Notes: generated from the letters alone by a model not told the origin. Positions 19,033 to 38,051 are shown, numbered from the stretch's first letter. The stretch: 64,000 bases of DNA from Candidatus Wolframiiraptor gerlachensis (GCA_021323375.2 JAJPCT020000018.1:1-64000); one strand, 5' to 3'. Numbers and translations are program-made.

Positions 19033-19614
19033 ATGTCTAGGATAACGGTTCTGAGGCTCGGCCATAGGATAGCGAGGGATAAGAGGGTTACCACGCATGT
19101 GGCCCTAGTCGCGAGAGCATACGGCGCCCATGAGATAATAATCACGGGAGACCGCGATGATAACCTAATACGCCGCATAGAGATTATAGTCGAGAAATGG
19201 GGCGGGCCGTTCTCCGCGAGATTCGAGGATAACTGGAGAGAGGTAATCAGGAGGTTCAAGGAGGCTGGAGCAGCAATAATCCACCTGACAATGTATGGTG
19301 TAAACCTCCCCGACATAATAGATGAGATTAGAAGGATCTGGAGAGATGGTAAAGATCTATTGGTGATTGTCGGAGGCGAGAAGGTCCCAGGAGAGGTTTA
19401 CGGCCTAGCAGACTACAACATCGCTGTTGGAAACCAGCCCCATAGCGAGGTCGCAGCACTAGCAACATTCCTAGACTGGCTCCAAGAGGGAGAGGAGCTG
19501 AGAAGGGAGTTCTCGAACGCGAAGCTGAAGATAATCCCGAGCCCAAGAGGAAAGAAGGTTATACGCCTAGGGAGTGAAGGCTTACCGATTAACGAGGATG
19601 ATGCAGGTCATTAG
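19033..19614 (+). CDS. trm56: tRNA (cytidine-56-2'-O)-methyltransferase
   Basis: [39 protein letters not shown]. Confidence 0.96.
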
Positions 19615-21318: not shown

Positions 21319-21360
21319 AACAACGCTTATGTGTAAAGAAATTAACTATTGCATCAAGCC

Positions 21361-22668
21361 ATGAGGTATGAGGATACGACCTTGGCCTCTAGAAGGATGT
21401 TCGAGGAGGCGTGCAGATATCTTCCGGGAGGGGTGTCTTACTCGATAAGATACTTTGAGCCCTATCCTATCTATGTCTCAGCTGCGCGTGGTCAGAGGAT
21501 TTGGGATCTTGATGGAAACGAGTATACTGATTACTGGATGGGGCATGGTGCTCTGATTATGGGACATGGTTATCGGCCGGTTATCGATGCTGCGGTAAGC
21601 CAGTTGCAGGATTATGCTCATGTTGGTTTCCCCCATGAGTGGGAGGTTAGGCTGGCGATGCAGGTGTCGAGAATGGTTGAGAGCGTTGAGATGATGAGAT
21701 TCACGAATAGCGGGACGGAGGCGGCGATGTATGCCTGCAGGCTCGCTAGAGCATATACAGGGAGAAAGGTAGTCGCGAAGTTCGAGGGCGGGTGGCATGG
21801 TGGATACGACTGCCTCCATATCGGGGTTCAGCCCCCATATGAGGTCCCCGGGAGCCTGGGGATACCCGAGGAGTCGCTCAAGTATACGATACTCCTGCCA
21901 TTCAATGATCTTGAGAGTGTTGAGAAGCGTGTGAGAGACCTTGACCTCGCGGCGATAATTGTCGAGCCGGTCCTCGGAGCTGGTGGAGTGATACCGGCTG
22001 AGCCTGAGTTCCTCAGGGGGCTGAGAGAGATCTGCGACATGCTCGGCGCACTCCTGATATTCGACGAGGTTATCACGGGCTTTAGGCTGTCCCCCGGAGG
22101 GGCGCAGAGGATCTATGGTGTCAGGCCGGATCTAACGATCTTCGGGAAGATATTGGGCGGCGGCATCTTCCCGGCTGGGGGCTTCGGGGGAAAGACTGAG
22201 ATAATGGAGCTTCTCGATCAACTAAAATATCCTCGGCCGCATGAGAGGGCATTTCAGGGCGGGACTTATGCCGCGAATCCGCTGACCACGAGGGTGGGAT
22301 ACACGCTTCTCAAGGAGCTTGAGGAGAGGCCTGAGATCTATCAAAGGCTTAACCAGCTTGGAGAATATGTTAGAAAAAGTCTCGAAGATGTTTTCTCTAG
22401 ACATGGCCTAGCAGCTCACATTACTGGGATTGGCTCGATGATAGGGATACACTTCACGAGGGAGAGGCCCCGGGATGCTAGGATGGCCCAGCAGACGAAG
22501 AATGTGGAGATAGCTAGGAGGTTCTTCAGACATGTGCTGGAGAATGGGATGATATATCTGACGCCCGAGGTCCCGCATCTCTTCATTTCTGCGGCGCACA
22601 CCCGGGAGGACTTGGGTGATCTGATCTCGGTCGCGGAGGATTTTGCGAGGAGGAATGCTACTCCCTGA
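21361..22668 (+). CDS. Class III aminotransferase, glutamate-1-semialdehyde aminomutase-like
   Basis: FTNSGTEA, KFEGGWHG, LIFDEVITGFR, FGKILGGG. Confidence 0.88.
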   Translation: MRYEDTTLASRRMFEEACRYLPGGVSYSIRYFEPYPIYVSAARGQRIWDLDGNEYTDYWMGHGALIMGHGYRPVIDAAVSQLQDYAHVGFPHEWEVRLAMQVSRMVESVEMMRFTNSGTEAAMYACRLARAYTGRKVVAKFEGGWHGGYDCLHIGVQPPYEVPGSLGIPEESLKYTILLPFNDLESVEKRVRDLDLAAIIVEPVLGAGGVIPAEPEFLRGLREICDMLGALLIFDEVITGFRLSPGGAQRIYGVRPDLTIFGKILGGGIFPAGGFGGKTEIMELLDQLKYPRPHERAFQGGTYAANPLTTRVGYTLLKELEERPEIYQRLNQLGEYVRKSLEDVFSRHGLAAHITGIGSMIGIHFTRERPRDARMAQQTKNVEIARRFFRHVLENGMIYLTPEVPHLFISAAHTREDLGDLISVAEDFARRNATP

Positions 22669-24787
22669 AGTAGGGTTGGAGGAATGCTTTGGGCGGCCTC
22701 GCCCTCTTGCCGAGGGCTGCTGAGACCGCAACCGTCAATAGGTATGGTATGGATTGGAAGAACTGGTATGGTAGCTGGACTATCGTGACGAGCCATGCTT
22801 GGAGGGCGTTTAGGAATCCGAAGAAGATGCATGCAAGCCATATCCATGCAGGGTTCCAGTTTCCGAGGACGACGAGGGCCATAGCTATCCAGCTCCACTC
22901 GCCGCCAACATTTAGATTGAATGATCTCAAGTCTATGAGGGAGTAGAATGCGCCGCCGATGGCCATTAGCGCGGAGCCCGCCAATATCGCGTAATATCTC
23001 ACCGCGTGAACCCTGATCAGGGATGAGTCTGCGGCCCTCGGGTTCTCGCCAACAGCTCTCATCACGAGGCCCCATCTAGTCTTAGCTAGAATGAAGATTA
23101 GGATTAGCGGCAGGATGTATGCTCCAGCATAGATGTATGGGTTCTGGTTGAAGGCTGAGCCTATTATGGGCAGGTCTCCGAGGGGCCCGAGCTTTAGGGG
23201 CGGCGTGGCCGGGACTGTCGGCTCGACTAGCGGCGACCCAATCAATACGCGGTGCACAAAGTATGTCAGGTTCATGGCATAGAATGTTATGGCTATTCCC
23301 GAGATATGTTGCTGGCATCCAAGGCTCACTACTAGGAGGGCGTGGAGTAGGCCGAGGAGAGCGCCGATGAGGGCCGCGGCCACGACCCCGATCAATATGC
23401 TGCCGGAGAGGTAGGCGGCCACGAAACCCCATCCAGCGCCGGCTATCATTATCCCGAGTATTCCTAGGTTCAGGACGCCGGTCTTCTCTATGAGCATCTC
23501 ACCTAAGGATGCGAAGATTATTGGTGTCGCCGAGACAAGCGTTAAACCCACAATACTCGAGATGATCCTCTCTAGGTAGCTTCCTTGTATAATCGCGCCG
23601 ACGGTCGCGAGGATTGCGAGCGCCATAATGGCGTAGAGCATCATAGTTAGAGTTCTCCTGCCGAGAATGATTTGGGATGATGAGCGGCCTCCGCCTAAAC
23701 CACCTACGGTGGCTGAGGGCTTCTCGAGCTTAACAGCCTTTCTAAATCCAATGCGTATTCTGTATGTTGTGATGGCCCCTAATATTAGGAAGATTATGAG
23801 GGTCTGTGCTTGTATGAGGTCTGATAGGAATGATGGGACGCCCGTGTTCCAGCTCATGGCATTCGCGCCGTTTATCAATATGCTGAAGAATATCCCGGCT
23901 AATGCTGCTCCTATTGGATCAAGGCCTCCGAGCATCGCTATCGCTAGGGCTATGAGGCCATAGTTTGGGCCGACAAATGGTGTCATGTAGAATAGTATTC
24001 CGGTTACTTCACATGCCCCAGCAAGTCCCGCAAGACCGCCGCTGATAAAAGCCACCCAGAAATAGATCTTCGGGAGGCTGAATCCCTCGAGCTCCGCAAC
24101 CCTTGGCGAGGTCGCGGCTATAATCCAGTTCCTGAGAATAGTCCTATTCATCAGGATCCAGAGGACTCCTAAGATGATGAAGGGCAATATTACGCCTAAG
24201 TGGAGCCGAGTTCCCGGGATGAGTATCGGGAGTTTCGCATTAGCTCCTATCTCGGCTGACTGTGGATAGGTGGTATAGGGGGCTCTCATCGGCCCTGTGA
24301 GAAGACCGGCACATATCTGGAGAACCGCACTCCAGATTAGGAGTGTTGTCAGGACCTCATCTTGGTTACGTCGAACCTTCAGCCACCAGCTCACGAGGCA
24401 TACGGCCGCGCCCCCAAGCCAGCTTAACATGAAGATCAGCAGTATCAGGAGCTGGGGCGGGAGATGCTTTAACTGGACTCCGAGATATGCTGCGATTAGG
24501 CCGCCGACTATGAACTGGCCGTGCACTCCGAGGTTCCAGAACCTGGCCCTAAATGCGACTAGGATTGCGAATGCTAATATTATTAGCGGTGATGCAGTGA
24601 CTAAGATCTCCGTGGGGTTCTCGAAGGGCCATGTAAGGAGATAGTAGTATACTGCTCCAAGATCCCCCCTGGCCATCAGGACGTATATCGCGGAGGCTAG
24701 GATTGAGAGGATGACGGCTAGAACGGTGATGCTCAACCTCTTGATGGGTGTAAGGGCTCCCCTTCTCTCGAGGCTAAGTTCGAGCAA
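22658..24787 (-). CDS. ABC transporter permease, two nucleoside/sugar-type permease domains fused
   Basis: WNLGVHGQF..GGLAGLAG domain followed by EKTGVLNLG..RAVGENPRAAD..GNWNP domain in one frame. Confidence 0.88.
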   Translation of the reverse strand: MLELSLERRGALTPIKRLSITVLAVILSILASAIYVLMARGDLGAVYYYLLTWPFENPTEILVTASPLIILAFAILVAFRARFWNLGVHGQFIVGGLIAAYLGVQLKHLPPQLLILLIFMLSWLGGAAVCLVSWWLKVRRNQDEVLTTLLIWSAVLQICAGLLTGPMRAPYTTYPQSAEIGANAKLPILIPGTRLHLGVILPFIILGVLWILMNRTILRNWIIAATSPRVAELEGFSLPKIYFWVAFISGGLAGLAGACEVTGILFYMTPFVGPNYGLIALAIAMLGGLDPIGAALAGIFFSILINGANAMSWNTGVPSFLSDLIQAQTLIIFLILGAITTYRIRIGFRKAVKLEKPSATVGGLGGGRSSSQIILGRRTLTMMLYAIMALAILATVGAIIQGSYLERIISSIVGLTLVSATPIIFASLGEMLIEKTGVLNLGILGIMIAGAGWGFVAAYLSGSILIGVVAAALIGALLGLLHALLVVSLGCQQHISGIAITFYAMNLTYFVHRVLIGSPLVEPTVPATPPLKLGPLGDLPIIGSAFNQNPYIYAGAYILPLILIFILAKTRWGLVMRAVGENPRAADSSLIRVHAVRYYAILAGSALMAIGGAFYSLIDLRSFNLNVGGEWSWIAMALVVLGNWNPAWIWLACIFFGFLNALQAWLVTIVQLPYQFFQSIPYLLTVAVSAALGKRARPPKAFLQPYFRE

Positions 24788-26315
24788 CTTCCATCAACCC
24801 GCTTATCATCATGCCGAGCTTCTCAACAGTTATCTCGGAGGGCTTAAATGTCCCGAGGATCCTCTTGTTCGCGAATGCTGAAACCCTGTCGCATATGGCT
24901 AGCAGCTCCTTTAGATTTGGAGAGAATATTATCGTTGTTAATCCTCTCCGCCTCCTCTCCAAAACCCTGTCAAAGAACAGCTTTACGCCGCGTGGGTCTA
25001 GGCCGACAGTCGGGTGGAGGGTTATCAGGAGCTTATCCCACCTCCCCAGCACTCTCCCGATATAGGTCCTCTGCATGTTTCCGCCAGAGAGGGTTTCAAC
25101 AGGGCTCTTCAAGTCCCTGAAGACAATCTGAAACTCGCTCGCAAGCCTCTCAGCAAGCCTCCTCCGCTTCTCCGGCTCAAGGAAAATTCCATGTGAGAAG
25201 AGGCTCTCGCTCCCGATCGTGAGGTTATCCTCTATGCTCGCCCCGAGGATCAAGCCATCCCATATCCTATCATCCGAGAGGAATCCGACGCCGCGCCTCC
25301 TAAGCTCTGCCGCGCCCAGGCCGGTAACATCCTCGCCAAACAATATGATCCTCCCGGATGCGGGCTTCCTAACACCATAGATACATTCTGCCAGCTCCTT
25401 CTCCCCGGTCCCGGGAACAGCCGCTACCCCGTGAATCTCCCCCTCAAAAACCTCGAGATCGAGATCCTCTACAATGACCTCGCCCCTATCATCCACAACA
25501 ACAAGATCCTCAAGCCTCAAAGCCGTCCTCTCACAAGCCTTCTCCAAGATCTCAACCTCCTCCAATGGCTTGAAGTACTCCACCTCATCGAACATGCTCT
25601 TGATGAGATCCTCAAGCTTGGCCTCTCTCGCATCGAACCTCGAGACTATCTTGCCGCCAGTCATCACAAGAATCTCATCAACGGCCTCGATCAGGTCCGA
25701 GAGATCGTGGGAGATGATTATCACGGTATACCCGCGGCTGGCCAGCTCTCTCAGGTACTCGCTTATCCTCCGCTTCTGCTGCGCCGGGAGATAAGCCATG
25801 CTCTCATCCAGTATCAGGATAGGCCTCCTCCCCATCTCATGGAGCATCTCGCAGATCATTAGGGCTCGGATGATCTCGAATGCCCTCAGCTGCCCTATCG
25901 GAAGCCTCTCCGCCAGCTGATCAAGAGCGAGCTTAACGCCGATCTCACTAGCTATCCTCTCAGCCATTCTCCTGACCTCATCTAGATCGGGCATTATGCC
26001 TGGATGAAGAAGCGCGAGCTGCTCGAGAAGCGTTAGAGCTGGAGCAAGGTTAGGATGCTGCTCAACCTTAACAACACCTGCCTCAACCACCGCCTGATGA
26101 TATTCCTCAATCCTAACACCATTAACAAAAACATCCCCGCGATCAGGCCTCAGATATCCAGAGATTATGTTTGTCAGAGTTGATTTCCCAGCACCATTAG
26201 GCCCAACGAGCCCATAAACCCTACCACCATCGAGCTCCAAAGTGACGTCATCTAGCGCTATCGCGCCCCCGATGAAGGTCTTCCTTACGTTTATCAGCCT
26301 GATCGCGGGGATCAA
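24774..26315 (-). CDS. ABC transporter ATP-binding protein (tandem NBD, CUT2-type)
   Basis: GPNGAGKST, ILILDE, LSGGNMQR. Confidence 0.92.
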   Translation of the reverse strand: MIPAIRLINVRKTFIGGAIALDDVTLELDGGRVYGLVGPNGAGKSTLTNIISGYLRPDRGDVFVNGVRIEEYHQAVVEAGVVKVEQHPNLAPALTLLEQLALLHPGIMPDLDEVRRMAERIASEIGVKLALDQLAERLPIGQLRAFEIIRALMICEMLHEMGRRPILILDESMAYLPAQQKRRISEYLRELASRGYTVIIISHDLSDLIEAVDEILVMTGGKIVSRFDAREAKLEDLIKSMFDEVEYFKPLEEVEILEKACERTALRLEDLVVVDDRGEVIVEDLDLEVFEGEIHGVAAVPGTGEKELAECIYGVRKPASGRIILFGEDVTGLGAAELRRRGVGFLSDDRIWDGLILGASIEDNLTIGSESLFSHGIFLEPEKRRRLAERLASEFQIVFRDLKSPVETLSGGNMQRTYIGRVLGRWDKLLITLHPTVGLDPRGVKLFFDRVLERRRRGLTTIIFSPNLKELLAICDRVSAFANKRILGTFKPSEITVEKLGMMISGLMEVART

Positions 26316-26331
26316 GGCTATCTCACCAGCC

Positions 26332-27570
26332 CTACTTCTTCGCCCTCATGGCTCTCCGCGCCAACAATGCTATCACTATCGCCTCGATCACGACTACAAC
26401 TGCCAGCATATACGTTGCTATCTCAAAGATCTGTGTCGGCTGCTGGGGCGCCGCGCCTCCAGCCTGTCTAAGCTCCGGCCAAACCTGCTCCGGCGGCAGC
26501 TCGATTATCGGAACCCAGGTCATCCCAGTCCTAATCTTATCCTCCCACTCCCTGACCAGTGTCAGGATATCTTCGTTTAGCGGCGGGCTCGGCTTACCAA
26601 AGTGGTGGAATGGAGCGAGATATGATCCATTAAAGTTCATCCAAGAGTATGTTCCGAGGTTGTCGGCGGTGTATGATCCTGATAAAACCCTCTCGAAGAC
26701 TACTCGGACCGTTGGCCTCATATCCCATACGAGGCTTGTTATTGTGACCTCGGGCGCCCTCTCATATTGATCCGCCATGTTGCCTATGACCCAGACCTCC
26801 TTGCCTGCGGCATAAGCCTCCCTTGCGGCCTCCTCGGCCCCAACCCTCTCAGCGAAGATCACGTCAACCCCGCTATCTATCAGAGTCTTCGCCAGCCTCT
26901 TCGCGGTCGCTGGATGATACCATGGAGACTCGCCTGGTGGAATATTGCCGAGGAGATAGACCACCTTCGCCTCAACATTCGGATTAACCATCTTGGCACC
27001 ATAAATGAATGCGTTAACGATCCTGTTCACCTCATTTATCGGCATCGCGGCAACAACACCTATCTTATTAGTCTTCGTGATCTTTCCAGCAATTATCCCC
27101 GCGAGGAATGCTGGCTGATGAAGCCAGTTATCGAAGACCGCGAAGTTCGGCGGTGTCGGGGAATACTCGCTACCAGCGGCAAAGGCCACATTCGGATAAT
27201 CCCTCGCAACTCTCCTGGCGATATCCTCCTTAAGGAAGGCGTCGAGGAAGACTATGTCAGCGACCTTCGCAGCATCCCTGAGCGCGAGCTCAAACTCCTT
27301 GGGATCCTGCTTCCTATCCACGAACTGGTAATCAACCTCTATGCCCTTAGCCCTATACTCCTCAGCAACGGCGAGGATCGCCTGGTGTATCGCTCCATCC
27401 CATGGCTCGCTAACAGGTGTCTGGAAAACCGCCCGGACGACGAGCCTTCTACGCGTCTCCTGGCCTTCAGCGGATGTCAGCGAGAACCCGGCGAGAATAA
27501 TGCAGAGCAAGAGCAACATGGCGAGAAACACTATCCGCCTCGCCGCAAAACTCCTACTCACTCGGGGCAT
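26332..27570 (-). CDS. BMP-family ABC substrate-binding protein
   Basis: Signal peptide, FLAGIIAGKITKTNKIGVV, GVDVIF, C-terminal TM anchor. Confidence 0.9.
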   Translation of the reverse strand: MPRVSRSFAARRIVFLAMLLLLCIILAGFSLTSAEGQETRRRLVVRAVFQTPVSEPWDGAIHQAILAVAEEYRAKGIEVDYQFVDRKQDPKEFELALRDAAKVADIVFLDAFLKEDIARRVARDYPNVAFAAGSEYSPTPPNFAVFDNWLHQPAFLAGIIAGKITKTNKIGVVAAMPINEVNRIVNAFIYGAKMVNPNVEAKVVYLLGNIPPGESPWYHPATAKRLAKTLIDSGVDVIFAERVGAEEAAREAYAAGKEVWVIGNMADQYERAPEVTITSLVWDMRPTVRVVFERVLSGSYTADNLGTYSWMNFNGSYLAPFHHFGKPSPPLNEDILTLVREWEDKIRTGMTWVPIIELPPEQVWPELRQAGGAAPQQPTQIFEIATYMLAVVVVIEAIVIALLARRAMRAKK

Positions 27571-27703: not shown

Positions 27704-27775
27704 GCCCCGGTAGCTCAGCGGGAGAGCGCCCGGCTGAAGACCGGGTTGTCGTGGGTTCAAATCCCACCCGGGGCA
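27704..27775 (+). tRNA. tRNA-Phe(GAA)
   Basis: GCCCCGG/CCGGGGC acceptor, CCCGG-CTGAAGA-CCGGG, TTCAAAT. Confidence 0.96.
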
Positions 27776-28062: not shown

Positions 28063-28866
28063 ATGAGTGGTCAGGGCTTCAATATAATCGTCCTGATCAA
28101 GCAGGTTCCCGATATTGAGAAGGTTAGATTCGACGTTGAGACGGGGAGGATTGATAGGAGCTCGGCGCCCGGCGAGACGAACCCGTTCGACTTACATGCT
28201 CTGGAGGCTGGATTGCAGATTAAGGAGAGGTTTGGAGGCTTTGTTACCGTCATTAGCATGGGGCCGAGGCAGGCTGAGTCATCGCTCAAGGATGCTTTGG
28301 CCAGAGGGGCCGATAGGGCGATACTATTGACGGATGCGAGGCTGGCCGGGGCCGACACGATAGCGACCGCGAAGGCCCTCGCCGCCGCCATCAAAAAGCT
28401 GGGTAAATTCGACTTGGTGCTCTGCGGCGAGAAGACTGTCGACGGCGATACGGGGCAGGTTGGCCCAGAGGTTGCCGAGCTCCTCGGAATACCCCACGCG
28501 ACCTATGTCTGCGAGATCAGGGAGATAACACGAGATAGCATCAGAGTCGTCTCCGATATGGGTGACAAGTATCTCTATGAGCTGAAGCTGCCAGCCCTAC
28601 TAACTGTGACTAGGGAGCTTAACTCGCCTAGGCTCCCGACATTAAAGGATCTCCTAAGAGCCAAGAGAATGCAGGTTGAGATCTGGACCGCCGACCATCT
28701 CTCGGAGATAGTCCCAATTGATCAACTCGGCTTCCAGGGATCTAAGACTAGGGTCGTTAAAGTCGTGATACCGAGCACAGAGCATAGGAGGGGGGTGATC
28801 CTAAAGGGCGATGACGCGGTTGAGAAGATTGGTGAGATCATCTTGAGGGAGGTGCTTAGTGGATGA
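28063..28866 (+). CDS. etfB: Electron transfer flavoprotein beta subunit
   Basis: KQVPD, NPFDLHALE, SMGP, GADTIAT, DGDTGQVGP. Confidence 0.95.
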   Translation: MSGQGFNIIVLIKQVPDIEKVRFDVETGRIDRSSAPGETNPFDLHALEAGLQIKERFGGFVTVISMGPRQAESSLKDALARGADRAILLTDARLAGADTIATAKALAAAIKKLGKFDLVLCGEKTVDGDTGQVGPEVAELLGIPHATYVCEIREITRDSIRVVSDMGDKYLYELKLPALLTVTRELNSPRLPTLKDLLRAKRMQVEIWTADHLSEIVPIDQLGFQGSKTRVVKVVIPSTEHRRGVILKGDDAVEKIGEIILREVLSG

Positions 28867-29861
28867 CTGGAATACTCGTATATGCCGAGGCCAGCGGCCC
28901 CGAGATACATCCTATATCATTTGAGCTTCTTGGCAAGGCTAGGGAGCTGGCTGAGAAGCTTGGCCTAGAGGTCTGGAGCGTGGCCCTTGGATATGGGATC
29001 TCAGATAGGGCCCCCGAGCTGATATATCATGGCGCCGACAAGGTCTACGTCTACGATGATGAGAGGCTCCGAGACCTAAACGTTGTAGCATACAAGAATG
29101 TGCTCGTGGAGCTTGTGAAGGAGATTAAGCCGGAGATCTTCCTCCTCGGCGCGACTCCTTGGGGCCGGAGCCTAGCTCCAAGGGTAGCTGCAGCCCTCGA
29201 TACCGGCCTAACAGCGGACTGCATAGATCTCCAAGTCAGCGAGGATGGCAAGCTCATCCAGATTAGGCCCGCTTTCACCGGGAACATCCTCGCACACATA
29301 GAGACTGTTAGCAAGCCGGTCATGGCCACCATAAGATATAGGGTGATGAGGAAGCTGCCCCGAGACCCGAGTAGAAAAGGGGAGATAATAGTCTGCAGTG
29401 TCGAGAAGATAGACTGTGATGGGATAAGATGCTTAGGGAAGGTGTCGGAGAGGAGGATAAACCTAGCTGATGCCGAGATAGTGGTTGCTGGTGGAAGGGG
29501 CTTGAAGAAGAAGGAGGATCTAAGATTGCTAGAGGAGCTGGCAAGCGTGATCGGCGGGGTTGTTGGGGCGAGCCGGCCATTAGTCGAGGAGGGCTGGATC
29601 TCTAAGGATCACCAAGTCGGCTTTAGTGGGAACGTGGTCAAGCCAAAACTATACGTCGCATGTGGGATATCCGGCTCACCACAGCACTTAGCCGGGATGA
29701 GAGACTCGAACATAATCATAGCGATAAACATCGATCCATCAGCACCAATCTTCAGACATGCAGATTATGGTGTAGTCTCCGATCTCTACGACTTCATACC
29801 AAAGCTCATAAATTATCTAAAGGAGAGGGCTGGAAAATCCGTGGAGACAAAAATGATGTAA
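28863..29861 (+). CDS. etfA: Electron transfer flavoprotein alpha subunit
   Basis: TGLTADC, VAGGRG, QVGFSG, GISGSPQH. Confidence 0.95.
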   Translation: MTGILVYAEASGPEIHPISFELLGKARELAEKLGLEVWSVALGYGISDRAPELIYHGADKVYVYDDERLRDLNVVAYKNVLVELVKEIKPEIFLLGATPWGRSLAPRVAAALDTGLTADCIDLQVSEDGKLIQIRPAFTGNILAHIETVSKPVMATIRYRVMRKLPRDPSRKGEIIVCSVEKIDCDGIRCLGKVSERRINLADAEIVVAGGRGLKKKEDLRLLEELASVIGGVVGASRPLVEEGWISKDHQVGFSGNVVKPKLYVACGISGSPQHLAGMRDSNIIIAINIDPSAPIFRHADYGVVSDLYDFIPKLINYLKERAGKSVETKMM

Positions 29862-29886
29862 ACAGCAATTATAGTCCAGTGAGCAA

Positions 29887-31773
29887 CTACTTTATTTTTT
29901 CCAAGAGCGTCTTATATGCATCGAATTTGCTCTCCTCTAAGCATTTCATGAGCCCGAGCCTTTCAAGGGTCTCCCTCTTCGGGTAACCATCCGGACCCCA
30001 TCCTCGATACTCATAGTACTCCTTCAGCATTTTATCTAGCTCAACAACTTGGCCTGAAGCTCCACCATTTGATAGAGGCTCCTTAAGCAATCTATCGGGG
30101 AGCTTATCATCCTCACCACTCATCCCACATGCTAGGTTGAATAGCCTCTTCAGATTGAAGATCGCCGTCCCTCTTTGATGCAGGTCCTTGGCTGTGGTCT
30201 TTCTACCCGTTGCTAGTGAGTAGACTGAGGCGACATGGCCGGGGGTTATCATGAGGAACTTGCATATGCCTAGAGACTCGATCACTTCATGCCAATCCTG
30301 CATTATCGCCACTATCCTACCCTTCCCATCCACGTCAAATCTCCAGACCCTCTCATGTATCCCCAAATCTGTTACCCTCTCGCCCTGCTCGATCCTGAAG
30401 ACAAGCCCATAGAGGTGATCCGCGCCCCTATTGGATGTCGCATATTGGAGCCCCATGCCCTTAAAAGCCCTTGGATCATGCATGGGTATCTCAAGGCCCT
30501 TAGAATGCATTGCAAATGACTCCGATCCCTTAACCTCCTTAGACGCCTCTCTTACGCCCCTCGCCAATAGCTCCCCAATACCATACCTCTTCGCGATCTT
30601 CATAATCAATTCTTCAACAAGTTTATGATCACCCCATCTTGGCTTGATCCCATCTAGTTTCTCATCACTTATCAGCCCCCTCTCATATGCCTCGATAAGC
30701 CATGCTATGACAACGCCGGTTGAGATCACATCTATGCCGAGCTTATTGCAAAGCTGATGTAGCTTCGCCACCTTCGTAGGGTCGCTTATCAGGAGAAGTG
30801 ATCCTAAAGCCCCTATACTCTCGTACTCAATAGCCCTTCCCACGACCTTCTCTCCATCAACCTCACAGTCAACATATCTCCAGCATCCTATTGGACAGTT
30901 GAAGCAGGCCCTATGCCCCCTAACTATCCTCTTTGCCACCTCCTCACCCTCTAGATTACGCACCTCATCCCAAGTCCCCATGCTGAAGTTTTTTATCGGC
31001 AGATCCCCGTACGTATACATAGGCCCAACTTCTGCGGTCGTGCCATAAGTTGAATAAAGCTGCGTGGTCGGGAAAGACATTATCGATGGAAGTATCCTCT
31101 TGAGATATTCTCTTAGGCTGGGTAGGTTCTCCACCTCGACCTTGCCCGAGCCCTTCACAGCTATCGCCTTCAAGTTCTTTGAACCCATTACAGCGCCCAT
31201 CCCACATCTCCCAGCAGCCCTCGGACCATCCGGCCTAACATCAAAGAATACTCCCGCGATGCTTACAAGATTCTCGCCAGCCGGGCCTATGACCGCGCAT
31301 CTAACATTCTCGCCAATAAGCTTCTTCAACTCAATATCAGCCCCATATGTATCTAGGCCCCAAAGCCTGCTAGCATCCCCAATCTCCACCTCTCCATCAT
31401 GGATATAGAGGTATACGGGTTTCTCAGCCCTCCCAGTCACGACTATTCCATCATATCCAGCCCTCTTCAGCTCGGTGCCCCAGAAGCCCCCAGCATGAGC
31501 CTCGCCCCAGCCTCGAGTTAACGGAGACTTTGCCGCCACCGTCATACGAGCTCCAGTCGGCATTATCGTCCCGGTTAGAGGCCCAGTCATGAAGACAAGG
31601 ACATTCTCTGGTGAAAGTGGATCCACCGCGGGATCTACTAAGTCGAATATCAGCCTAGCAGCCAGTCCACTTCCACCGAGGAAGTTCGTGAGATATTCTT
31701 CCGGAATCTCCCTGGCCTCCACCCTGCCATCGCTAAGGTTCACATAAGCTATTTTCCTGCAATAACATTTCAT
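29887..31773 (-). CDS. Tungsten-type aldehyde:ferredoxin oxidoreductase family protein
   Basis: KSPLT, AAGRCGMGAVMGSKNLKAI, ACFNCPIGC, EYESI, DPRAF. Confidence 0.94.
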   Translation of the reverse strand: MKCYCRKIAYVNLSDGRVEAREIPEEYLTNFLGGSGLAARLIFDLVDPAVDPLSPENVLVFMTGPLTGTIMPTGARMTVAAKSPLTRGWGEAHAGGFWGTELKRAGYDGIVVTGRAEKPVYLYIHDGEVEIGDASRLWGLDTYGADIELKKLIGENVRCAVIGPAGENLVSIAGVFFDVRPDGPRAAGRCGMGAVMGSKNLKAIAVKGSGKVEVENLPSLREYLKRILPSIMSFPTTQLYSTYGTTAEVGPMYTYGDLPIKNFSMGTWDEVRNLEGEEVAKRIVRGHRACFNCPIGCWRYVDCEVDGEKVVGRAIEYESIGALGSLLLISDPTKVAKLHQLCNKLGIDVISTGVVIAWLIEAYERGLISDEKLDGIKPRWGDHKLVEELIMKIAKRYGIGELLARGVREASKEVKGSESFAMHSKGLEIPMHDPRAFKGMGLQYATSNRGADHLYGLVFRIEQGERVTDLGIHERVWRFDVDGKGRIVAIMQDWHEVIESLGICKFLMITPGHVASVYSLATGRKTTAKDLHQRGTAIFNLKRLFNLACGMSGEDDKLPDRLLKEPLSNGGASGQVVELDKMLKEYYEYRGWGPDGYPKRETLERLGLMKCLEESKFDAYKTLLEKIK

Positions 31774-31774
31774 C

Positions 31775-32432
31775 CTAAATCCCCCAATACTTCTTGGCAA
31801 CCTCTATCTCTTCCGGCGGAACTTCTGGCGGCTCCCTTCCCAAGGTATAGCAGACAAATTCTATAGTAGCTATTGCCTCGAGAAGCTCTACTATCGCCTC
31901 AGCCTCTAGCAGGTTTGTTCCGAGTGCAAGGACCCCATGGTTCTTCAGGATTATTGCGCGGGCACCTCTCGATGCAGCCTGAGCAACGGCCTCGGCCAAC
32001 TGAGTGGTCCCAGGAAACTTGAACTCGATCTCCTCAATTCTCCTAAGCAGTAGAACCGCCTCATCCGTTATAGTTGTTTTAATCTTCTTGCCGGCGAGAG
32101 TTAATCCCAAGACCATGGGGTTGTGAGCATGCACAACGGCATTAACATCGGGTCTAACCTTGTAGACCGCTGCGTGCATGGGCCACTCGATGGATGGCTT
32201 GAGGAACCCCTCAACAATATCGCCATCAAGGTTGAGCTTGACTAGGTCGTCAGGCTTGAGAGCACCCTTGAAGACCTGGCTCGGGGTAATCCAGAACTCT
32301 GCCTGCCCCGGGGATCCTCGCGCTAATATTGCCGCCTAAGGCCGTGATCAGGGATCTATCATAAAGCGTCTTCGAGATCCTGATAATCTCCTCCTTAATC
32401 TCATCCTCGGAGAAGAGTTCAAACTCACTCAT
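31775..32432 (-). pseudogene. fucA: Class II aldolase (L-fuculose-1-phosphate aldolase-like), frameshifted
   Basis: GGNISAR..WITPS..KPSIEWPMH..VVHAH..LKNHG; frame break at the GGCAGGCA tandem (32300-07). Confidence 0.8.
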
Positions 32433-32551
32433 AGGATTGCTCGCCTAAAATCTACCTAGCAGATTAAAAAACTTATACTTTCATGGAGCCTTCCAATAAC
32501 AGGCCTTCTAGCGGCTTCAGCGAAATATTTTAAATATAATCGAGCATAAAA

Positions 32552-34081
32552 ATGCTGTTGCCGGACATGATGAGTCAAAAGCAGGATCTTGTTCTAGTTT
32601 ATGATTGTGGTTCTACAAATCTTCGAGTGCTGGCGATGGATTCCCGTGGAGAGGTTATTGCTCACAGGAGGGAATTGAATTCCACGAAGCCTCAGCCGGG
32701 CGGCCACCCGGAATGGCGCATCTGGGATCTTGATGATATCTGGAAGAAGCTATGCATGCTTACACGTGGGGTGTTATCCGATCTTGGAGACAGGTATAGG
32801 GTTGCTGGCGTGATAGTCACTACTTGGGGGGCCGATGGCGTGTTCGTTGATGAGAGGGGCAATCCAACCTATCCCGCGATATCATGGCAATGTCCCAGAA
32901 CTAGGGAGGTTATGGATTATGTTCGGGAGCTGATCGACCCATGGGAGGTCTTCAGGATAACGGGCTACCAGTTTATATCATTTAACACGATTTTTAAGTG
33001 GATCTGGATTAGGAAGAATGCTCCGGATGCGATAAAGAGGGCTAAAGCATTTCTCATGATCCCCCACTACATATCATATAAGCTCACGGGAGAGTTTCAT
33101 GTTGAGCCGACTGATGCCTCGACAACCATGGCCATGGACTTGGCTAAGAGGGACTGGTCGGATGAAATGCTATCAATAGCGGGGGTTGATCGAGCATTAT
33201 TTCCGGAGTGGAGGGAGCCTGGAGACTATGCGGGCTATGTAACCGAGCAGGCAAGTAGGGAGACGGGCTTGAAAAAGGGCCTCCCAGTAATAGTCGGCGG
33301 CCATGACACGCAATTCGCTATCTTCGCGGCAGGTGCTCGGAGGGATGAGGCCGTCCTCTCGAGCGGGACGTGGGAAATACTCTCATTCAGATCTGAGGAA
33401 TACATCACGAGTAGAGACGCTTATGAACATGGCGTCGTGGTTGAGCTCGATGTTGAGAAAAATAGGTGGAACCCGCAATTCCTGATGATAGCATCAGGTG
33501 TTTTAGAGTGGCTTAGTAAGATAGCATACCACGAATGTGAAAAAAGATATGAGCTGATGGTTGAGGAGGCGTCGCGAATTTCCCCCGGATCGGAGGGCGT
33601 GTTCTTTCTCCCAAGCTTCTTCCCCGGCTCCGGCCCCACCGGGAAATACAATGTTCCAGGTGTGATCGTGGGGCTAACATTATCGATCACTAGAGCGCAT
33701 CTGTATAGGGCCGCTCTAGAGGGGCTCTCATACCAACTGAGGCTGGCATTAGAGCTTCTGGAAAGATCATTCAATCTTAGATTCTCGGCGATACGTGTGG
33801 TTGGAGGCGGATCGAGAAACGAGTTATGGAACATGATCCGGGCAAACATCACCGGGAGAAGGATAATCACGAGCAGATTCGCTGAGACAACAGCCTTGGG
33901 CGCGGCGATAGTGGCCTTTAAGGGCATAGGATTATTCAGAACCTTCGAGGAAGCAAGAGAAAACTTGGATTACGACCTAAAAGTAGTTGAGCCCGAAAAG
34001 GACCGAACCGTATACGAGGAATGCTATGAGCGATATCTCCAGTTATATCAAAACCTCTCCACACTTTTCAAAAATGATTGA
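32552..34081 (+). CDS. fucK: L-fuculokinase-like FGGY kinase
   Basis: DCGSTNLR, VTTWGADG, ISWQCPRT, SFNT, GHDTQFA, VLSSGTWEIL closely follow E. coli FucK motifs as recalled. Confidence 0.82.
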   Translation: MLLPDMMSQKQDLVLVYDCGSTNLRVLAMDSRGEVIAHRRELNSTKPQPGGHPEWRIWDLDDIWKKLCMLTRGVLSDLGDRYRVAGVIVTTWGADGVFVDERGNPTYPAISWQCPRTREVMDYVRELIDPWEVFRITGYQFISFNTIFKWIWIRKNAPDAIKRAKAFLMIPHYISYKLTGEFHVEPTDASTTMAMDLAKRDWSDEMLSIAGVDRALFPEWREPGDYAGYVTEQASRETGLKKGLPVIVGGHDTQFAIFAAGARRDEAVLSSGTWEILSFRSEEYITSRDAYEHGVVVELDVEKNRWNPQFLMIASGVLEWLSKIAYHECEKRYELMVEEASRISPGSEGVFFLPSFFPGSGPTGKYNVPGVIVGLTLSITRAHLYRAALEGLSYQLRLALELLERSFNLRFSAIRVVGGGSRNELWNMIRANITGRRIITSRFAETTALGAAIVAFKGIGLFRTFEEARENLDYDLKVVEPEKDRTVYEECYERYLQLYQNLSTLFKND

Positions 34082-34191
34082 GGGCGATATCTAACTGGAA
34101 GCTCGTCTGAAAATTATGCTTGAGATAGATGGTAAAGCGCGTCAAACGCCAGATTTATATCATCTTGCTTGCCTTTGTCTAGGCTGATAGG

Positions 34192-35580
34192 GTGAGTGGA
34201 GGAGTGGGGCGGGAGATTATAGAGGAGCTCAAATCAATTGTAGGGGATGAATGGGTTGTATCCGCTAGGGAGGCTATCGAGGGATACTTGTACGATGAGA
34301 CCCCAATACCTATTAGGCCTGAGGCATGCGATGATGTTGTTGTGGTTAAGCCTGGCTGCTCTGAGGAGGTGTCGAGAATACTTCAGCTCGCGAATAAGTA
34401 TCTGATTCCGGTGTTCCCTAGAGGCGGTGGGACGGGTCTTGCTGGGGCATGCATTCCAACTATGAGCGGGATAATTTTGTCGCTTGAGCGGATGAATAAG
34501 ATCATCGTTGATACTGATAATTTGATGGCTGAGGCCGAGGCTGGGGCGACGCTTAAGGACCTTATCGAGGCCGCGGATAGGGCGGGCTTATCCTTCCCGC
34601 TTCATCCAGGTGATGAGGGTGCTCAGATCGGCGGATTGATAGCGTGTAACGCTGGTGGTGCTAGGGCGATTAAAACCGGGGTAATGAGGAACTGCGTCAA
34701 GGGGATTGAGGTTGTCCTGCCGACGGGTGAGATAATTAGGCTGGGTGGAAAGGTTCTGAAGAATAATGTCGGCTATGACTTAATGCACTTGATTATCGGT
34801 AGTGAGGGGACGCTGGGAGTGATAACCAAGGCTTGGATAAGGCTTCAGCCTAGGGATATTGCCTCCGCCACGATAGTCATCCCGTTTGAGAGGAGGGAAC
34901 AGGCTCTGGGAATAGTTCCAAAGATATTCAAGGAGGGGATAGTGCCCCTGGCCGTGGAGTATGTTGAGAGGAATCTTGTCGAGATGGTTGCGAGGAGCCT
35001 TGGGCTTAAATGGCCATGCGCCTCGGCGGAATACCAGCTGATCGTCATTCTGTCTGAGACCTCCGAGGACGCGCTTCTTGGCGCCCTAGAGAGGCTTCTC
35101 AATCTCTGTGAGAAGTCTGGTGCCCTTGAGCCGGTGGTAGCTGAGACGAGGAAGGAGCAGGATGAGATCCTGAAGATTAGGAGCGAGATCTATTCCACCC
35201 TCAAGCCTAACATGGTTGATATACTGGATGCAACCGTCCCTCCCGCCAGATTGATAGACTTAATAGAGAAGGTGAATGAGCTTGAGAAGAAATATGGCGT
35301 CTACATGCCCGTTTATGGACATGCTGGGGATGGGAATCTACACGTGCATCTAATGAAGTGGGATGGATGGACTGATGAAAGATATGATGAGCTTAGGAGA
35401 GTAATTTATGCTAAGGCCCTCGAGCTCGGAGGGACGATAACCGGGGAGCATGGCATAGGATATGTTAGGAGAAAGTATGTTGAGATGGTGCTAGATAGAA
35501 AATCAGTCGAGCTCATGAGGGAGATTAAGAGGATCTTTGACCCGAATAACATATTGAATCCTGATAAAGTTCTACCATGA
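34192..35580 (+). CDS. FAD-linked 2-hydroxyacid dehydrogenase (GlcD/LctD-like)
   Basis: PRGGGTGL, NAGG, GSEGTLGVIT, GHAGDGNLH, GEHGIG, FDPNNILNP. Confidence 0.92.
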   Translation: MSGGVGREIIEELKSIVGDEWVVSAREAIEGYLYDETPIPIRPEACDDVVVVKPGCSEEVSRILQLANKYLIPVFPRGGGTGLAGACIPTMSGIILSLERMNKIIVDTDNLMAEAEAGATLKDLIEAADRAGLSFPLHPGDEGAQIGGLIACNAGGARAIKTGVMRNCVKGIEVVLPTGEIIRLGGKVLKNNVGYDLMHLIIGSEGTLGVITKAWIRLQPRDIASATIVIPFERREQALGIVPKIFKEGIVPLAVEYVERNLVEMVARSLGLKWPCASAEYQLIVILSETSEDALLGALERLLNLCEKSGALEPVVAETRKEQDEILKIRSEIYSTLKPNMVDILDATVPPARLIDLIEKVNELEKKYGVYMPVYGHAGDGNLHVHLMKWDGWTDERYDELRRVIYAKALELGGTITGEHGIGYVRRKYVEMVLDRKSVELMREIKRIFDPNNILNPDKVLP

Positions 35581-35592
35581 GTAGTAAGCGCT

Positions 35593-37365
35593 TCACATGC
35601 TCGAACTTCTCTTGATGATGTTATCGAATTCTTTAAGCGCCTCCTCAAGGTATTCTCTCGAGATCCTTCCAAGCGGGGTCGGCGTCTCGATTATTCTCCT
35701 CGGTATTCTTAGACCGCTTGCCCTGAAGCCCTCCTCCCATTTCAGCCTTTGCTTCTCGAAGTATATCTCCCTACCAAGCCTCTTGAGATCTTCTGGAGAG
35801 TAATCATAGCCGAGGCTTCTCAATGCCTCAGAGACGAGGTTCTCGTCATAGACTCCCCTCGCGAAGAGGCATAATACGAGTGATGTGAGGATCTGCCTCC
35901 AAGCCTCCTCCTCAATGATCCTCTGAACCGCTTCTCGTGGGCTGGGCAGCCTCTCACCCAAGGAGAATATTTTCTGGTCTAGGGAGTATGCGCCGGAGTC
36001 TAGGTGCGAGTGTCTGAACCCTATTGCGAGGGAGATGAAGAATAATGGGCCGGTCAGATATCCGGCTGGCTCAATCCTGTTAAAGGCCATGGCGAAGTCC
36101 TCTCCACCATATCTTCTAGCCGCCTCCTCGACGCCCATCGCGAGGACCTTATAGAACTCGTTGGGTTGACTCACGATGTTCTCTATGGCCGCCATGTAGC
36201 CCCTCCAATCGCCCCACTTGAGATCCACAAGCGTCTCGGATTTCGTGATTAGGCCGCGCTCGAGGGCCTCCGTCGCCCATGCTAGGATGACTCCAGTGGA
36301 GATCGCGTCAAGACCCCAGTCCTCCACCGCTTTAAAGAGCTTGAGGAGGCCGAATCTATCCCTGACCCCGAGGTTCGTGCCGAGAGCATAGATGGGTTCA
36401 TAGTCATATGAGATGAACTCGGTCTTATACATGAACCTCTCATCCTCATATTCCTCTCTTATGGCTGCGAGGTGTATGCAGGCGACGGGGCATGCTGAGC
36501 AGGCGACCCTGCGCGCGAGCACGTTCTCAACTAAGGCCTCACCACTAATCTCCTCAGCCGCATCAAACCTGCCCGAGCTGAAGTTCTTCGTGGGCAGGGC
36601 CCCTATCGCGTTGAGAACAAGCACGTTCTCTGCTGTTCCGAGGTCATGGTATTTTTTGGTCTTCGGGCCCTTGGCGAGATCATAGATCTTCTTATAGATA
36701 TCCCGATAACGCCTCATGTCCGGGAATCTGTAGACCTTTTCCGGGGCTACGACTATGGCCTTGAGCTTCTTGGAGCCGAAGACGGCGCCGAGGCCCATCC
36801 TCCCGAAGTGGCGGAAAGTCTCAACCATGACCATAGCATATCTCACCAGCTTCTCTCCAGCCCCACCTATCCTAAGAATACTCCTCATTCCGGCTCCCGG
36901 GGTAATCTCTCTGAGAATTCTCCCGACGGTCTCGGCGCTTCTAACACCCCAGAGAGCGCTCGCATCTCTAAACCTCACTCGATCATGCTCTATCACGAGA
37001 TATACCGGCCTCTCGCTCACACCTCTTATCACGATCGCGCCATATCCCGCGAACCTTATTGCTAAAGCCGACCTCCCGCCCGCATGGGACTCCGCGAAAT
37101 AGCCGTTTAAAGGAGACTTGAAGACCGCAACAGTCTTTGACGCCATCGGAAATACTCCCGTTAATGGGCCGACGGCGAATATTATCGCGTTCTCCGGGCT
37201 CAGCGGGTCGGCGCCCCTCGGGACCTCCTCCTTATAGAGCTGGGCCGCCACACCTATTCCGCCAAGCCATCTACTGAAGAGGTCTTCACGATCCTCAACC
37301 CAATACCTCTTCCTAGCCAGGTCCACGTAAAGCACTCTTGAAAGCGTCCTCACCCAGTATGACAT
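35593..37365 (-). CDS. Aldehyde:ferredoxin oxidoreductase family protein (second AOR)
   Basis: KSPL, GRMGLGAVFGSKKLKAI, ACSACPVAC, DYE, GLDAISTG. Confidence 0.93.
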   Translation of the reverse strand: MSYWVRTLSRVLYVDLARKRYWVEDREDLFSRWLGGIGVAAQLYKEEVPRGADPLSPENAIIFAVGPLTGVFPMASKTVAVFKSPLNGYFAESHAGGRSALAIRFAGYGAIVIRGVSERPVYLVIEHDRVRFRDASALWGVRSAETVGRILREITPGAGMRSILRIGGAGEKLVRYAMVMVETFRHFGRMGLGAVFGSKKLKAIVVAPEKVYRFPDMRRYRDIYKKIYDLAKGPKTKKYHDLGTAENVLVLNAIGALPTKNFSSGRFDAAEEISGEALVENVLARRVACSACPVACIHLAAIREEYEDERFMYKTEFISYDYEPIYALGTNLGVRDRFGLLKLFKAVEDWGLDAISTGVILAWATEALERGLITKSETLVDLKWGDWRGYMAAIENIVSQPNEFYKVLAMGVEEAARRYGGEDFAMAFNRIEPAGYLTGPLFFISLAIGFRHSHLDSGAYSLDQKIFSLGERLPSPREAVQRIIEEEAWRQILTSLVLCLFARGVYDENLVSEALRSLGYDYSPEDLKRLGREIYFEKQRLKWEEGFRASGLRIPRRIIETPTPLGRISREYLEEALKEFDNIIKRSSSM

Positions 37366-37772
37366 ACAACCTCCACCTCTTGGAGCCTTATCACCTTATG
37401 GGGGCAGAACTGGGCACAGTATCCGCAGTATACGCAGATTATGGGCTTCCCAGTCTCTTCATCCATCCATATCGCGCCTATATCGCATGCCTCGGCGCAG
37501 TGGCCGCAACCATTACATCGCTCGGGTTTCAGGAGGACTCCTCCGCCGGGCCTCGGGATCAACGCATCCTCGGGACATACTCTGGCACATGGTGGATCCA
37601 AGCATGCCCTACAGACGATAACCGTGAAGCCCCGCTCAACACCACCAGCACTGCGAACCTTGATTGCCGACTTCTCATACCCGGCGAAGCCAAGCCTCCT
37701 AGAGCAGGCGAGCATGCAGAGCTGGCACCCAACACACCTATTCGCATCAAGAACTGCTAACCTCTTAACCAA
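37350..37772 (-). CDS. 4Fe-4S dicluster protein, partner of the adjacent AOR
   Basis: CVGCQLCMLAC, CRACLDPPCARVCP, CNGCGHCAEAC, CVYCGYCAQFCP. Confidence 0.92.
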   Translation of the reverse strand: MVKRLAVLDANRCVGCQLCMLACSRRLGFAGYEKSAIKVRSAGGVERGFTVIVCRACLDPPCARVCPEDALIPRPGGGVLLKPERCNGCGHCAEACDIGAIWMDEETGKPIICVYCGYCAQFCPHKVIRLQEVEVVCHTG

Positions 37773-38051
37773 GCAAATAACCCTCAACAACTAAATGATC
37801 CGCCAGCTTTAAACATTTCCAGATGATCACCACGATACACACTCATCGGGATAAGTCCAATAGAGATAAAACTTTACAGTTTCGGCGATAACTAGTTTCA
37901 CAACAATAGGCTTGCAGCTAAGAATCGTTTATGACGTCGCATCACCTGCTTTAACATCCACCCGAGAGTATCCCCCATCATATTCATGCCTAGGTTATCG
38001 TGGGGGTTTAGTTTAGATTAAAATGCGCCGAGGATATTTTCTATCGTAGCC

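Follow-up and report, generated by a model that had tools for sequence, protein, structure and literature searches.

The fuculose 1-phosphate and rhamnulose 1-phosphate pathways of Escherichia coli both release L-lactaldehyde and dihydroxyacetone phosphate (DHAP). To our knowledge, the catabolism of fucose and rhamnose in archaea has so far been described only as non-phosphorylative, and the literature that we searched contained no counter-example. It also contained no archaeal fuculose or fuculokinase pathway, as judged by title or abstract, and, with most subscription journals outside its scope, no paper linking lactaldehyde, an aldehyde:ferredoxin oxidoreductase (AOR) and archaea; a search for Aigarchaeota or Caldarchaeales with fucose gave no such paper among the matches listed, and one for LctBCD with archaea gave only reviews. 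Here, we describe a locus in a 64,000-nt stretch of DNA (hereafter, the window) from the assembly of Candidatus Wolframiiraptor gerlachensis (1.28 Mb in 27 contigs, 89.5% complete); the window belongs to the genus Candidatus Wolframiiraptor (Caldarchaeales). Genes for a FucK-like kinase, a class II aldolase and a tungsten-type AOR (AOR-1) lie there inside the genes for a putative confurcating lactate dehydrogenase, and this arrangement suggests an undescribed oxygen-free route from a deoxy-sugar via lactaldehyde and lactate to pyruvate.

The locus shares with the FucI-FucK-FucA pathway of E. coli and Bacteroides an FGGY kinase of the FucK lineage and a zinc-type class II aldolase with the histidine triad and the glutamate, and a FucI-family isomerase adjoins the kinase in L032, another Caldarchaeales metagenome-assembled genome from outside the genus. 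It differs in that the kinase falls into a sister subclade, the isomerase is a short form, Tyr113 of the aldolase is not kept, and no FucU or FucP was found here; the aldehyde would be oxidized by a ferredoxin-linked AOR, whereas the bacteria use the NAD-dependent AldA or the NADH-dependent FucO. In Chloroflexus aurantiacus and Bacillus subtilis (YuxG), rhamnulose-phosphate aldolase is fused to lactaldehyde dehydrogenase (RhaEW), and some RhaEW regulons include the lactate dehydrogenase genes lldD or lldEFG, according to the accessible part of that study (PMC3870299). As described there, RhaEW likewise couples aldol cleavage to the immediate oxidation of lactaldehyde, and a coregulated lactate dehydrogenase extends the route to pyruvate; however, RhaEW is a protein fusion with an NAD-dependent dehydrogenase of the short-chain dehydrogenase/reductase type, whereas our locus has adjacent genes, a tungsten-type AOR predicted to reduce ferredoxin, and a lactate dehydrogenase predicted to be linked to an electron-transfer flavoprotein (ETF).

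The lactate dehydrogenase LctBCD of Acetobacterium woodii (Ldh-EtfAB; 7QH2) catalyzes a reversible and ferredoxin-dependent reaction, according to the available portion of the report (PMC5861303). Our locus resembles LctBCD and the racemase LctF in that LctD is the best solved match of its dehydrogenase, in an ETF that is, by similarity, probably of the bifurcating type, in the LarA homologue nearby and in the gene order etfB-etfA-ldh, which is seen in relatives; it differs in its archaeal host, in an EtfA without the [4Fe-4S] domain of LctC, in that LarB, LarC and LarE were not found, and in that the operon is interrupted by the sugar genes. In Eubacterium limosum, the bifurcating LCT is induced together with the tungsten oxidoreductase WOR1, whose substrates include lactaldehyde as well as other aldehydes (PMC11725836), placing a tungsten aldehyde oxidoreductase and Ldh-EtfAB in one physiological context, as here. 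However, in the part of that paper available, WOR1 is pentameric and bifurcating, has a proposed role in acetaldehyde detoxification and has no link to a sugar aldolase, whereas AOR-1 is of the single-subunit AOR type and is encoded directly after the aldolase. The accessible part of the published model of Wolframiiraptor gerlachensis lists six AOR-family genes and several FGGY kinases called xylulose kinases, has the AORs act on aldehydes that arise from 2-keto acids, with their substrates only guessed, and reports that the growth of a genus member on sugars requires tungsten (PMC9246946). Aldolase and the aldolase-AOR pair, fuculose, lactaldehyde, lactate and ETF have 0 occurrences in its main text and 10 supplement files.

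Two interleaved modules

Genes were called from an open reading frame (ORF) listing together with Pfam and NCBIfam scans. All of the gene identities given in a preliminary description of the window were recovered at the positions where it had placed them; however, the single block that it proposed resolved into two interleaved modules. Module A consists of etfB (28063..28866, plus strand; a start at 28009 is also possible; Pfam ETF), etfA (28863..29861, plus strand), the gene for an LctD-like FAD dehydrogenase of the GlcD/LctD kind (34192..35580, plus strand; FAD_binding_4 and FAD-oxidase_C) and, as a loosely linked part, the gene for LarA, a nickel-pincer lactate racemase homologue (19611..20885, minus strand). 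This module is independent of the sugar genes, which form module B: AOR-1 (29887..31773, minus strand), a class II FucA-like aldolase (31775..32432, minus strand; Pfam Aldolase_II) and, divergent from the aldolase, a FucK-like FGGY ketose kinase (32552..34081, plus strand).

We compared 41 genomes (G000-G040, G000 being the W. gerlachensis assembly), comprising 14 from the genus and 27 more from the family and order, and mapped gene context by placing the window proteins on the relatives. Kinase orthologues (at least 55% identity) were found in 5 of the 14 genus genomes and in none of the 27 others; AOR-1 orthologues (at least 65%) were found in 9 of the 14, and the next best match elsewhere reached 45%. 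In G000, G002 and G005, a segment with the aldolase and AOR-1 on one strand and the kinase on the other lies between etfA and the dehydrogenase gene. In G007, the aldolase and AOR-1 again face away from the kinase, which is followed on its own strand by etfB, etfA and the dehydrogenase gene. Kinase, aldolase and AOR-1 share one strand of a separate contig in G012, and the aldolase and AOR-1 genes lie in this order on short contigs of G003, G004 and G006. L032 carries an operon of a CUT1 binding protein, two permeases, the aldolase and AOR-1, with a divergent 497-aa FucI-family isomerase followed by the kinase.

The kinase thus joins the aldolase-AOR pair in three layouts, namely the divergent one (G000, G002, G005 and G007), that of G012 and that of L032. 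Modules A and B adjoin or interleave in the four genomes with the divergent layout, in two different arrangements, and in this form the co-location noted in the preliminary description is conserved among relatives. In G005, the N-termini of the aldolase and the kinase seem to be lost, but a deletion was rejected, as the stretch is a run of N, that is, a scaffold gap. The module A context was examined in 11 genus genomes: etfB, etfA and the dehydrogenase gene are contiguous in 8 of them (G001, G003, G007, G008, G010, G011, G012 and G013), and in G000, G002 and G005, module B splits the series. LarA, together with a class III aminotransferase gene, lies upstream of etfBA in G000, G002, G008 and G012. 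A search for an operator motif shared between the intergenic regions of the two modules yielded only short 9-12-mers, the longest from a tRNA-like sequence.

Enzymes of the two modules

The ATG of AOR-1 (31773) lies one base past the aldolase stop codon TAG (31777-31775), and wherever it was measured (G000, G002, G012, L032 and the metagenome loci L130-L132 and L134), the gap between the two genes was 0-4 bases or an overlap. The aldolase-AOR pair is present in eight genus genomes and in L032; a scan of metagenome contigs with the aldolase alignment gave five further loci, four of which have an AOR gene directly downstream. This pair is the constant core of module B, and the block is far from chance. 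A more distant form of the pair, at the metagenome locus L132, is followed first by a gene for a RhaB-like kinase (478.3 bits against TIGR02627; cut-off, 528) and then by one for a TIM-barrel protein resembling xylose isomerase. The occurrence of the same pair with either fucose- or rhamnose-type upstream enzymes favours L-lactaldehyde as the probable common product passed from aldolase to AOR. The L132 genes (L132:5974-11203, on an archaeal contig) lie downstream of Opp/Dpp-type ABC ATPases and are a candidate AOR-linked rhamnose operon.

As the preliminary description had noted, the enzyme packed so tightly against the aldolase gene is of the AOR type: AOR-1 has AFOR_N (266 bits) and AFOR_C (438 bits) domains, and its best solved match is 1AOR, the AOR of Pyrococcus furiosus (427.7 bits). 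It contains the motifs CFNCPIGC (CxxCxxxC) at 290, EYE at 316, RGADH at 449 and ESLGIC at 499, whose roles in Fe-S binding and at the active site we presume to be those of the corresponding P. furiosus residues.

The preliminary description had missed a frame break in the aldolase. In the window as given, one extra base splits this gene over two reading frames (the break lies near 32300-32304), so that one frame covers the N-terminal part as far as about 32300 and the other holds the last 186 codons. Alignment with three relatives placed the extra base near 32300-32310, and contigs from three of four public runs compared as Logan contigs (X1, X3 and X5) are one base shorter at 32300; X1 is possibly the source sample itself and hence not independent, and X4 has no coverage of the site. 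With one base taken out in silico, the gene reads through as 218 aa, of which 213 match the G002 aldolase. Since the relatives and the contigs of the three runs lack the extra base and its removal restores the frame, the break is best read as a probable assembly error; a real pseudogene or a programmed frameshift was rejected on the same grounds.

The best solved match of the aldolase is Streptococcus pneumoniae FucA (4C24, 102 bits). Three histidine columns (H101, H103 and H165) are invariant in alignment with E. coli FucA, where the zinc ligands are His92, His94 and His155. The archaeal PSIEW aligns with PSSEW of FucA and PSSDT of AraD, so that the glutamate is kept; this residue is presumably the catalytic Glu73 of FucA, which is an aspartate in the epimerase AraD.

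The kinase has N- and C-terminal FGGY domains that together span its length (PF00370, 208.5 bits; PF02782, 106.5 bits) and is 39.7% identical to E. coli FucK, compared with 23-25% for RhaB, XylB, LyxK and GlpK. For a kinase tree, 70 of 80 loci gave one stop-free match of at least 430 aa, and 50 rows were left after 33 Bacteroidales-type rows had been thinned out. The kinase fell into a 39-row clade with E. coli FucK (support of 95 in the Shimodaira-Hasegawa-like approximate likelihood ratio test, SH-aLRT), which was sister to RhaB, and within it into a 24-row subclade of archaea, Aerophobetes and Armatimonadota (support 89). Within the FGGY tree, it thus belongs with the 1-kinases (FucK/RhaB) and not with the 5-kinases (AraB/XylB). 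The earlier identification as FucK-like stands as to lineage, given the grouping with the E. coli enzyme; it does not extend to the E. coli subclade itself, to which the subclade of our kinase is sister, nor to the FucK model, whose cut-off was not reached.

Another adjacency of a kinase and an AOR occurs elsewhere in G000: on contig C16 (C16:13867-18043; locus L120:3868-8043), a XylB-like FGGY kinase (below the cut-off), an AOR and a cupin-type glucose-6-phosphate isomerase-like protein are encoded in this order on the same strand, and a zinc alcohol dehydrogenase adjoins this operon.

The isomerase of L032 is a short form that reached 119 bits with the FucI model (cut-off, 775). Its best solved match is D-arabinose isomerase (3A9R, 96.7 bits, compared with 82.6 bits for FucI), which does not discriminate between the two sugars. 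Orthologues of this isomerase and of the CUT1 transporter occur in G002, on another contig, and the isomerase also occurs in G007. G000 encodes a 466-aa Fucose_iso_C protein (C23:22672-24863; locus L121:3670-5855) that matched a sulfoquinovose isomerase model weakly (164 of 700 bits), lies beside genes for a ribulose-phosphate 3-epimerase and a MalK-type ATPase and is conserved in L032, G005 and G012; this protein could be the missing isomerase.

For module A, the best solved match of the dehydrogenase was LctD of A. woodii (7QH2_C, 324.2 bits over residues 13-460); the next match scored 227.5 bits, and solved glycolate oxidase scored 201 bits. EtfA scored 235-286 bits against five bifurcating ETFs (7KOE_B, 286 bits; LctC, 7QH2_A, 285.5 bits) and at most 149 bits against non-bifurcating ones, and the five best solved matches of EtfB were all bifurcating ETFs (162-186 bits; non-bifurcating, at most 83 bits), these scores being measures of similarity only. 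The N-terminal [4Fe-4S] domain of LctC is absent from EtfA, in which residues 3-320 align to LctC 73-393 and no cysteine cluster motif is present. These matches agree with the ETF-coupled, LctD-like dehydrogenase predicted in the preliminary description. The predicted LarA also held up: it scored 470.5 bits against NF033504 (cut-off, 460), its best solved match was 2YJG (331 bits), and the His/His, Lys and His positions are conserved in the alignment, corresponding to what we take to be the catalytic H108 and H174, the nickel-pincer nucleotide-binding K184 and the nickel-binding H200 of Lactobacillus plantarum LarA.

A second GlcD/LctD-like FAD dehydrogenase, 60% identical to that of module A, is encoded in G000 without ETF genes beside it (C18:125620-127100; locus L122:6620-8101). 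Its gene adjoins a radical SAM gene and branched-chain amino acid genes.

A candidate route to pyruvate and its alternatives

We propose that module B is a phosphorylative ketose pathway and that it hands its product to module A, a confurcating lactate dehydrogenase of the Ldh-EtfAB type, and we hold this proposal with about even confidence; gene content, family assignments, conserved catalytic residues and conserved gene order are what we observed, and from these we infer all of the substrates, the direction of the ETF complex, the ferredoxin loop and the transfer between the modules. The FucK-like kinase would phosphorylate a ketose, most likely L-fuculose and supplied in relatives by the FucI-like isomerase, to the ketose 1-phosphate, which the zinc-dependent class II aldolase would cleave to DHAP and a 2-hydroxyaldehyde, most likely L-lactaldehyde. 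AOR-1, replacing the bacterial NAD-dependent AldA or the reductase FucO, would oxidize L-lactaldehyde to L-lactate and reduce ferredoxin. LarA would convert L-lactate to D-lactate, and the LctD-like dehydrogenase with EtfAB would convert lactate, reduced ferredoxin and 2 NAD+ to pyruvate and 2 NADH. The pyruvate formed would be taken up by pyruvate:ferredoxin oxidoreductase (POR), the subunits of which are encoded at 9562..12620 on the plus strand (gamma, 9562-10182; alpha, 10477-11676; beta, 11655-12620; Pfam POR, POR_N/PFOR_II and TPP_enzyme_C). With module B in or beside module A, the ferredoxin reduced by AOR-1 would pay for the oxidation of lactate, and the net reaction would be lactaldehyde + 2 NAD+ to pyruvate + 2 NADH.

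A more specific form of this proposal, which we put forward only tentatively, is a tungsten-dependent "lactaldehyde shunt" in Wolframiiraptor and its relatives, a closed loop in which a dedicated AOR oxidizes the hydroxyaldehyde half of a 6-deoxy-sugar, set free by the aldolase, and reduces ferredoxin that is used one-for-one by an Ldh-EtfAB without the Fe-S domain. If true, this shunt would be the first dedicated role of the AOR family in a sugar pathway other than that of glyceraldehyde-3-phosphate:ferredoxin oxidoreductase (GAPOR), it would give a direct reason for the need of the genus for tungsten during growth on sugars, and LarA would work without a home-made nickel-pincer cofactor, by scavenging or by an unknown synthesis route. 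Which aldehydes the many archaeal AOR paralogues oxidize in the cell is a long-standing open question, and the fixed aldolase-AOR gene pair names a concrete candidate substrate, lactaldehyde or glycolaldehyde. If the link to an ETF-dependent lactate dehydrogenase holds, this would be the first archaeal Ldh-EtfAB system and one pathway balancing its own ferredoxin, and phosphorylative catabolism of the fucose/rhamnose type would exist in anaerobic archaea. The block is real and conserved, and the interpretation in the preliminary description is partly supported; we regard the locus as a novel form of deoxy-sugar and lactate pathways already known rather than as a new kind of system.

A number of observations count against the route from fuculose to pyruvate. 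The best model for the kinase, the L-fuculokinase TIGR02628, gave 429.6 bits, below its cut-off of 470.9 (the next, XylB, gave 253); the E. coli/Bacteroidales FucK subclade (11 rows, support 99) is separate from that of our kinase, and E. coli-type FucI neighbours occur only in the former. The aldolase, scored as the intact G002 orthologue, fell under every NCBIfam cut-off (the best was FucA_Meth, NF040649, with 122.8 bits against 250; OtnC decarboxylase gave 108.9 bits and L-ribulose-5-phosphate 4-epimerase 108, both under their cut-offs). An equivalent of FucA Tyr113 is not kept, the archaeal TTITDEA standing against AIHYMIA of E. coli FucA in a loop of uncertain alignment; S. pneumoniae FucA reads SHYMIA in this loop, and Tyr113' is presumably the acid/base contributed by the neighbouring subunit.

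The supply of sugar and of cofactor raises similar objections. We found no FucI-like isomerase in G000, G005 or G012, and the five kinase-bearing genomes (G000, G002, G005, G007 and G012) had neither a GH29 fucosidase (PF01120, 0/5) nor FucU/RbsD (PF05025, 0/5). The preliminary description had reported no fucose isomerase in the window, and the same was found for the rest of G000, 89.5% complete as it is: fucI and fucU, for which it had proposed a genome-wide search, gave no tblastn match (E <= 1e-5) with E. coli queries, nor did RhaA, RhaM, XylA or AraA. The search that it proposed for larB, larC and larE likewise yielded no match in G000 to LarC (PF01969) or to the AIRC/LarB family (PF00731) and, for LarE (TIGR00268), a best score of 36 bits (cut-off, 150). 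Among the 41 genomes, five carry LarC, including 1 of the 14 from the genus, which lacks a LarA orthologue; LarA orthologues occur in 11 of the 41 genomes (9 of the 14 in the genus), none of which has LarC, and their distribution does not track that of the kinase. The preferred sugar of the genus is xylose, and fucose has 0 occurrences in the main text and 10 supplement files of the source (PMC9246946). The absence of an AIRC (LarB/PurE) match in G000 bears both on the supply of the nickel-pincer cofactor and on purine synthesis.

Some of these points would be accounted for by a pentulose as the substrate. D-Ribulose (from D-arabinose or ribitol) or L-xylulose would be 1-phosphorylated and split to DHAP and glycolaldehyde, from which AOR-1 would make glycolate; the latter would be excreted, or the GlcD-like dehydrogenase and ETF would oxidize it to glyoxylate. 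D-Arabinose and D-ribulose are also accepted by FucI, FucK and FucA of E. coli, and a D-arabinose isomerase is the best solved match of the L032 isomerase; the aldolase weakly matches a haloarchaeal ribulose-1-phosphate aldolase model (89 bits), the dehydrogenase gave 311 bits with the GlcD model TIGR00387, short of the cut-off of 568, the preference for a pentose fits, as far as it is described in the accessible source (PMC9246946), and glycolate needs no racemase, which suits the missing LarBCE genes. We nevertheless consider this version unlikely: the dehydrogenase is far closer to LctD than to solved glycolate oxidase, a LarA above the lactate racemase cut-off is a conserved neighbour, the aldolase-AOR pair also occurs with a RhaB-like kinase, and both D-arabinose and L-xylulose are scarce in natural settings relative to fucose and rhamnose.

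The hand-off itself may be questioned on the distribution of the modules. EtfA orthologues (at least 72% identity) occur in all 14 genus genomes, compared with 9 of 14 for AOR-1 and 5 of 14 for the kinase, which indicates that module A has a role of its own, and the modules are unlinked in G012 and L032. Module B could then end at excreted lactate or glycolate, with its ferredoxin going to hydrogenases, and module A could separately use outside lactate or run in reverse, reducing pyruvate in a bifurcating reaction that would regenerate NAD+ and yield reduced ferredoxin; the available portion of the LctBCD report gives a reversible reaction with a free-energy change near +6 kJ/mol (PMC5861303). 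The interleaving would then mark a rearrangement-prone spot beside tRNA genes, and the site is indeed flanked by a tRNA-Phe gene and a variable ABC cassette. However, module B touches module A in two arrangements, as an insertion in G000, G002 and G005 and as a kinase-etfB-etfA-dehydrogenase series in G007, and bacterial rhamnose regulons recruit lactate dehydrogenases in a like manner, according to the accessible part of that study (PMC3870299); two unconnected modules are therefore also an improbable explanation, and we retain the hand-off from module B to module A as the preferred reading.

That the class II "aldolase" is instead an epimerase or decarboxylase of the AraD or OtnC kind that releases no free aldehyde, with AOR-1 acting broadly to scavenge aldehydes that arise from 2-keto acids, would fit the closeness of the OtnC and 4-epimerase scores to that of FucA_Meth, the missing Tyr113 equivalent and the AOR substrates of the published model in its accessible part (PMC9246946), but it is very hard to credit given the FucA-like glutamate in place of the AraD aspartate, a partner kinase that groups with the 1-kinases, the presence on contig C16 of a distinct AraD-like protein and its own kinase, and an aldolase-AOR pair fixed at more than 12 loci with no more than 4 bases between its genes, which is difficult to explain without a common intermediate.

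Neighbouring and additional genes

Convergent with the dehydrogenase gene lies that for AOR-2, a divergent AOR-family large subunit (35593..37365, minus strand; AFOR_N and AFOR_C). AOR-2 is more distant from P. furiosus AOR than AOR-1 is (1AOR, 257 bits) and has CxxCxxxC at 289. Its start is overlapped by the gene for a polyferredoxin partner (37350..37790, minus strand; Fer4 families), whose 17 cysteines would suffice for about four [4Fe-4S] clusters. The two genes are convergent downstream of the dehydrogenase gene in 8 of the 11 genus genomes examined.

The class III aminotransferase encoded beside LarA is HemL-like (21349..22668, plus strand; Pfam Aminotran_3; TIGR00713, 391.7 bits, not reaching the cut-off of 527). 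Between this gene and etfB lie a BMP/PnrA-type ABC importer (22658..27570, minus strand; fused permeases, 22658-24787; ATPase, 24774-26315; binding protein, 26332-27570; Pfam BPD_transp_2, ABC_tran and Bmp) and a tRNA-Phe gene (27704..27775, plus strand; ARAGORN; Rfam RF00005, 72.5 bits). The preliminary description had considered this nucleoside-type importer as a feeder of the pathway. We set this idea aside, since the tRNA-Phe gene separates the importer from etfB, the importer is absent from this position in G012, and the ABC system found with module B in L032 and G002 is of the CUT1 type. The importer probably serves nucleoside salvage, outside the pathway, and this role fits the finding that no AIRC/PurE family member was detected in G000.

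The AraD-like class II aldolase/epimerase on contig C16 (323 aa by the longest ORF; NF005123, 188 bits; C16:22949-26312; locus L120:12949-16312) is encoded near a further XylB-like FGGY kinase. The two probably form an L-ribulose-type pair distinct from module B.

At the end of the window, genes for the large and small subunits of a NiFe hydrogenase and an NAD-binding Fe-S subunit (61387-63999, minus strand) resemble those of a sulfhydrogenase and are adjoined by HypF (59021-61333). This hydrogenase is a possible sink for the NADH and ferredoxin of the proposed pathway. The minus strand at 13584-15213 has a 231-aa ORF containing a Cas12f1-like/TnpB TNB domain and, after it, two ORFs without annotation, which together may be a TnpB-type element that has split or decayed. 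Between LarA and the aminotransferase gene, a tRNA-like sequence (20980-21080) gave no ARAGORN or Rfam call and may be an intron-bearing tRNA. Finally, two stretches 5' of etfB (27790-27990) carry C-box- and D-box-like motifs (RUGAUGA ... CUGA) and look like C/D box sRNAs.

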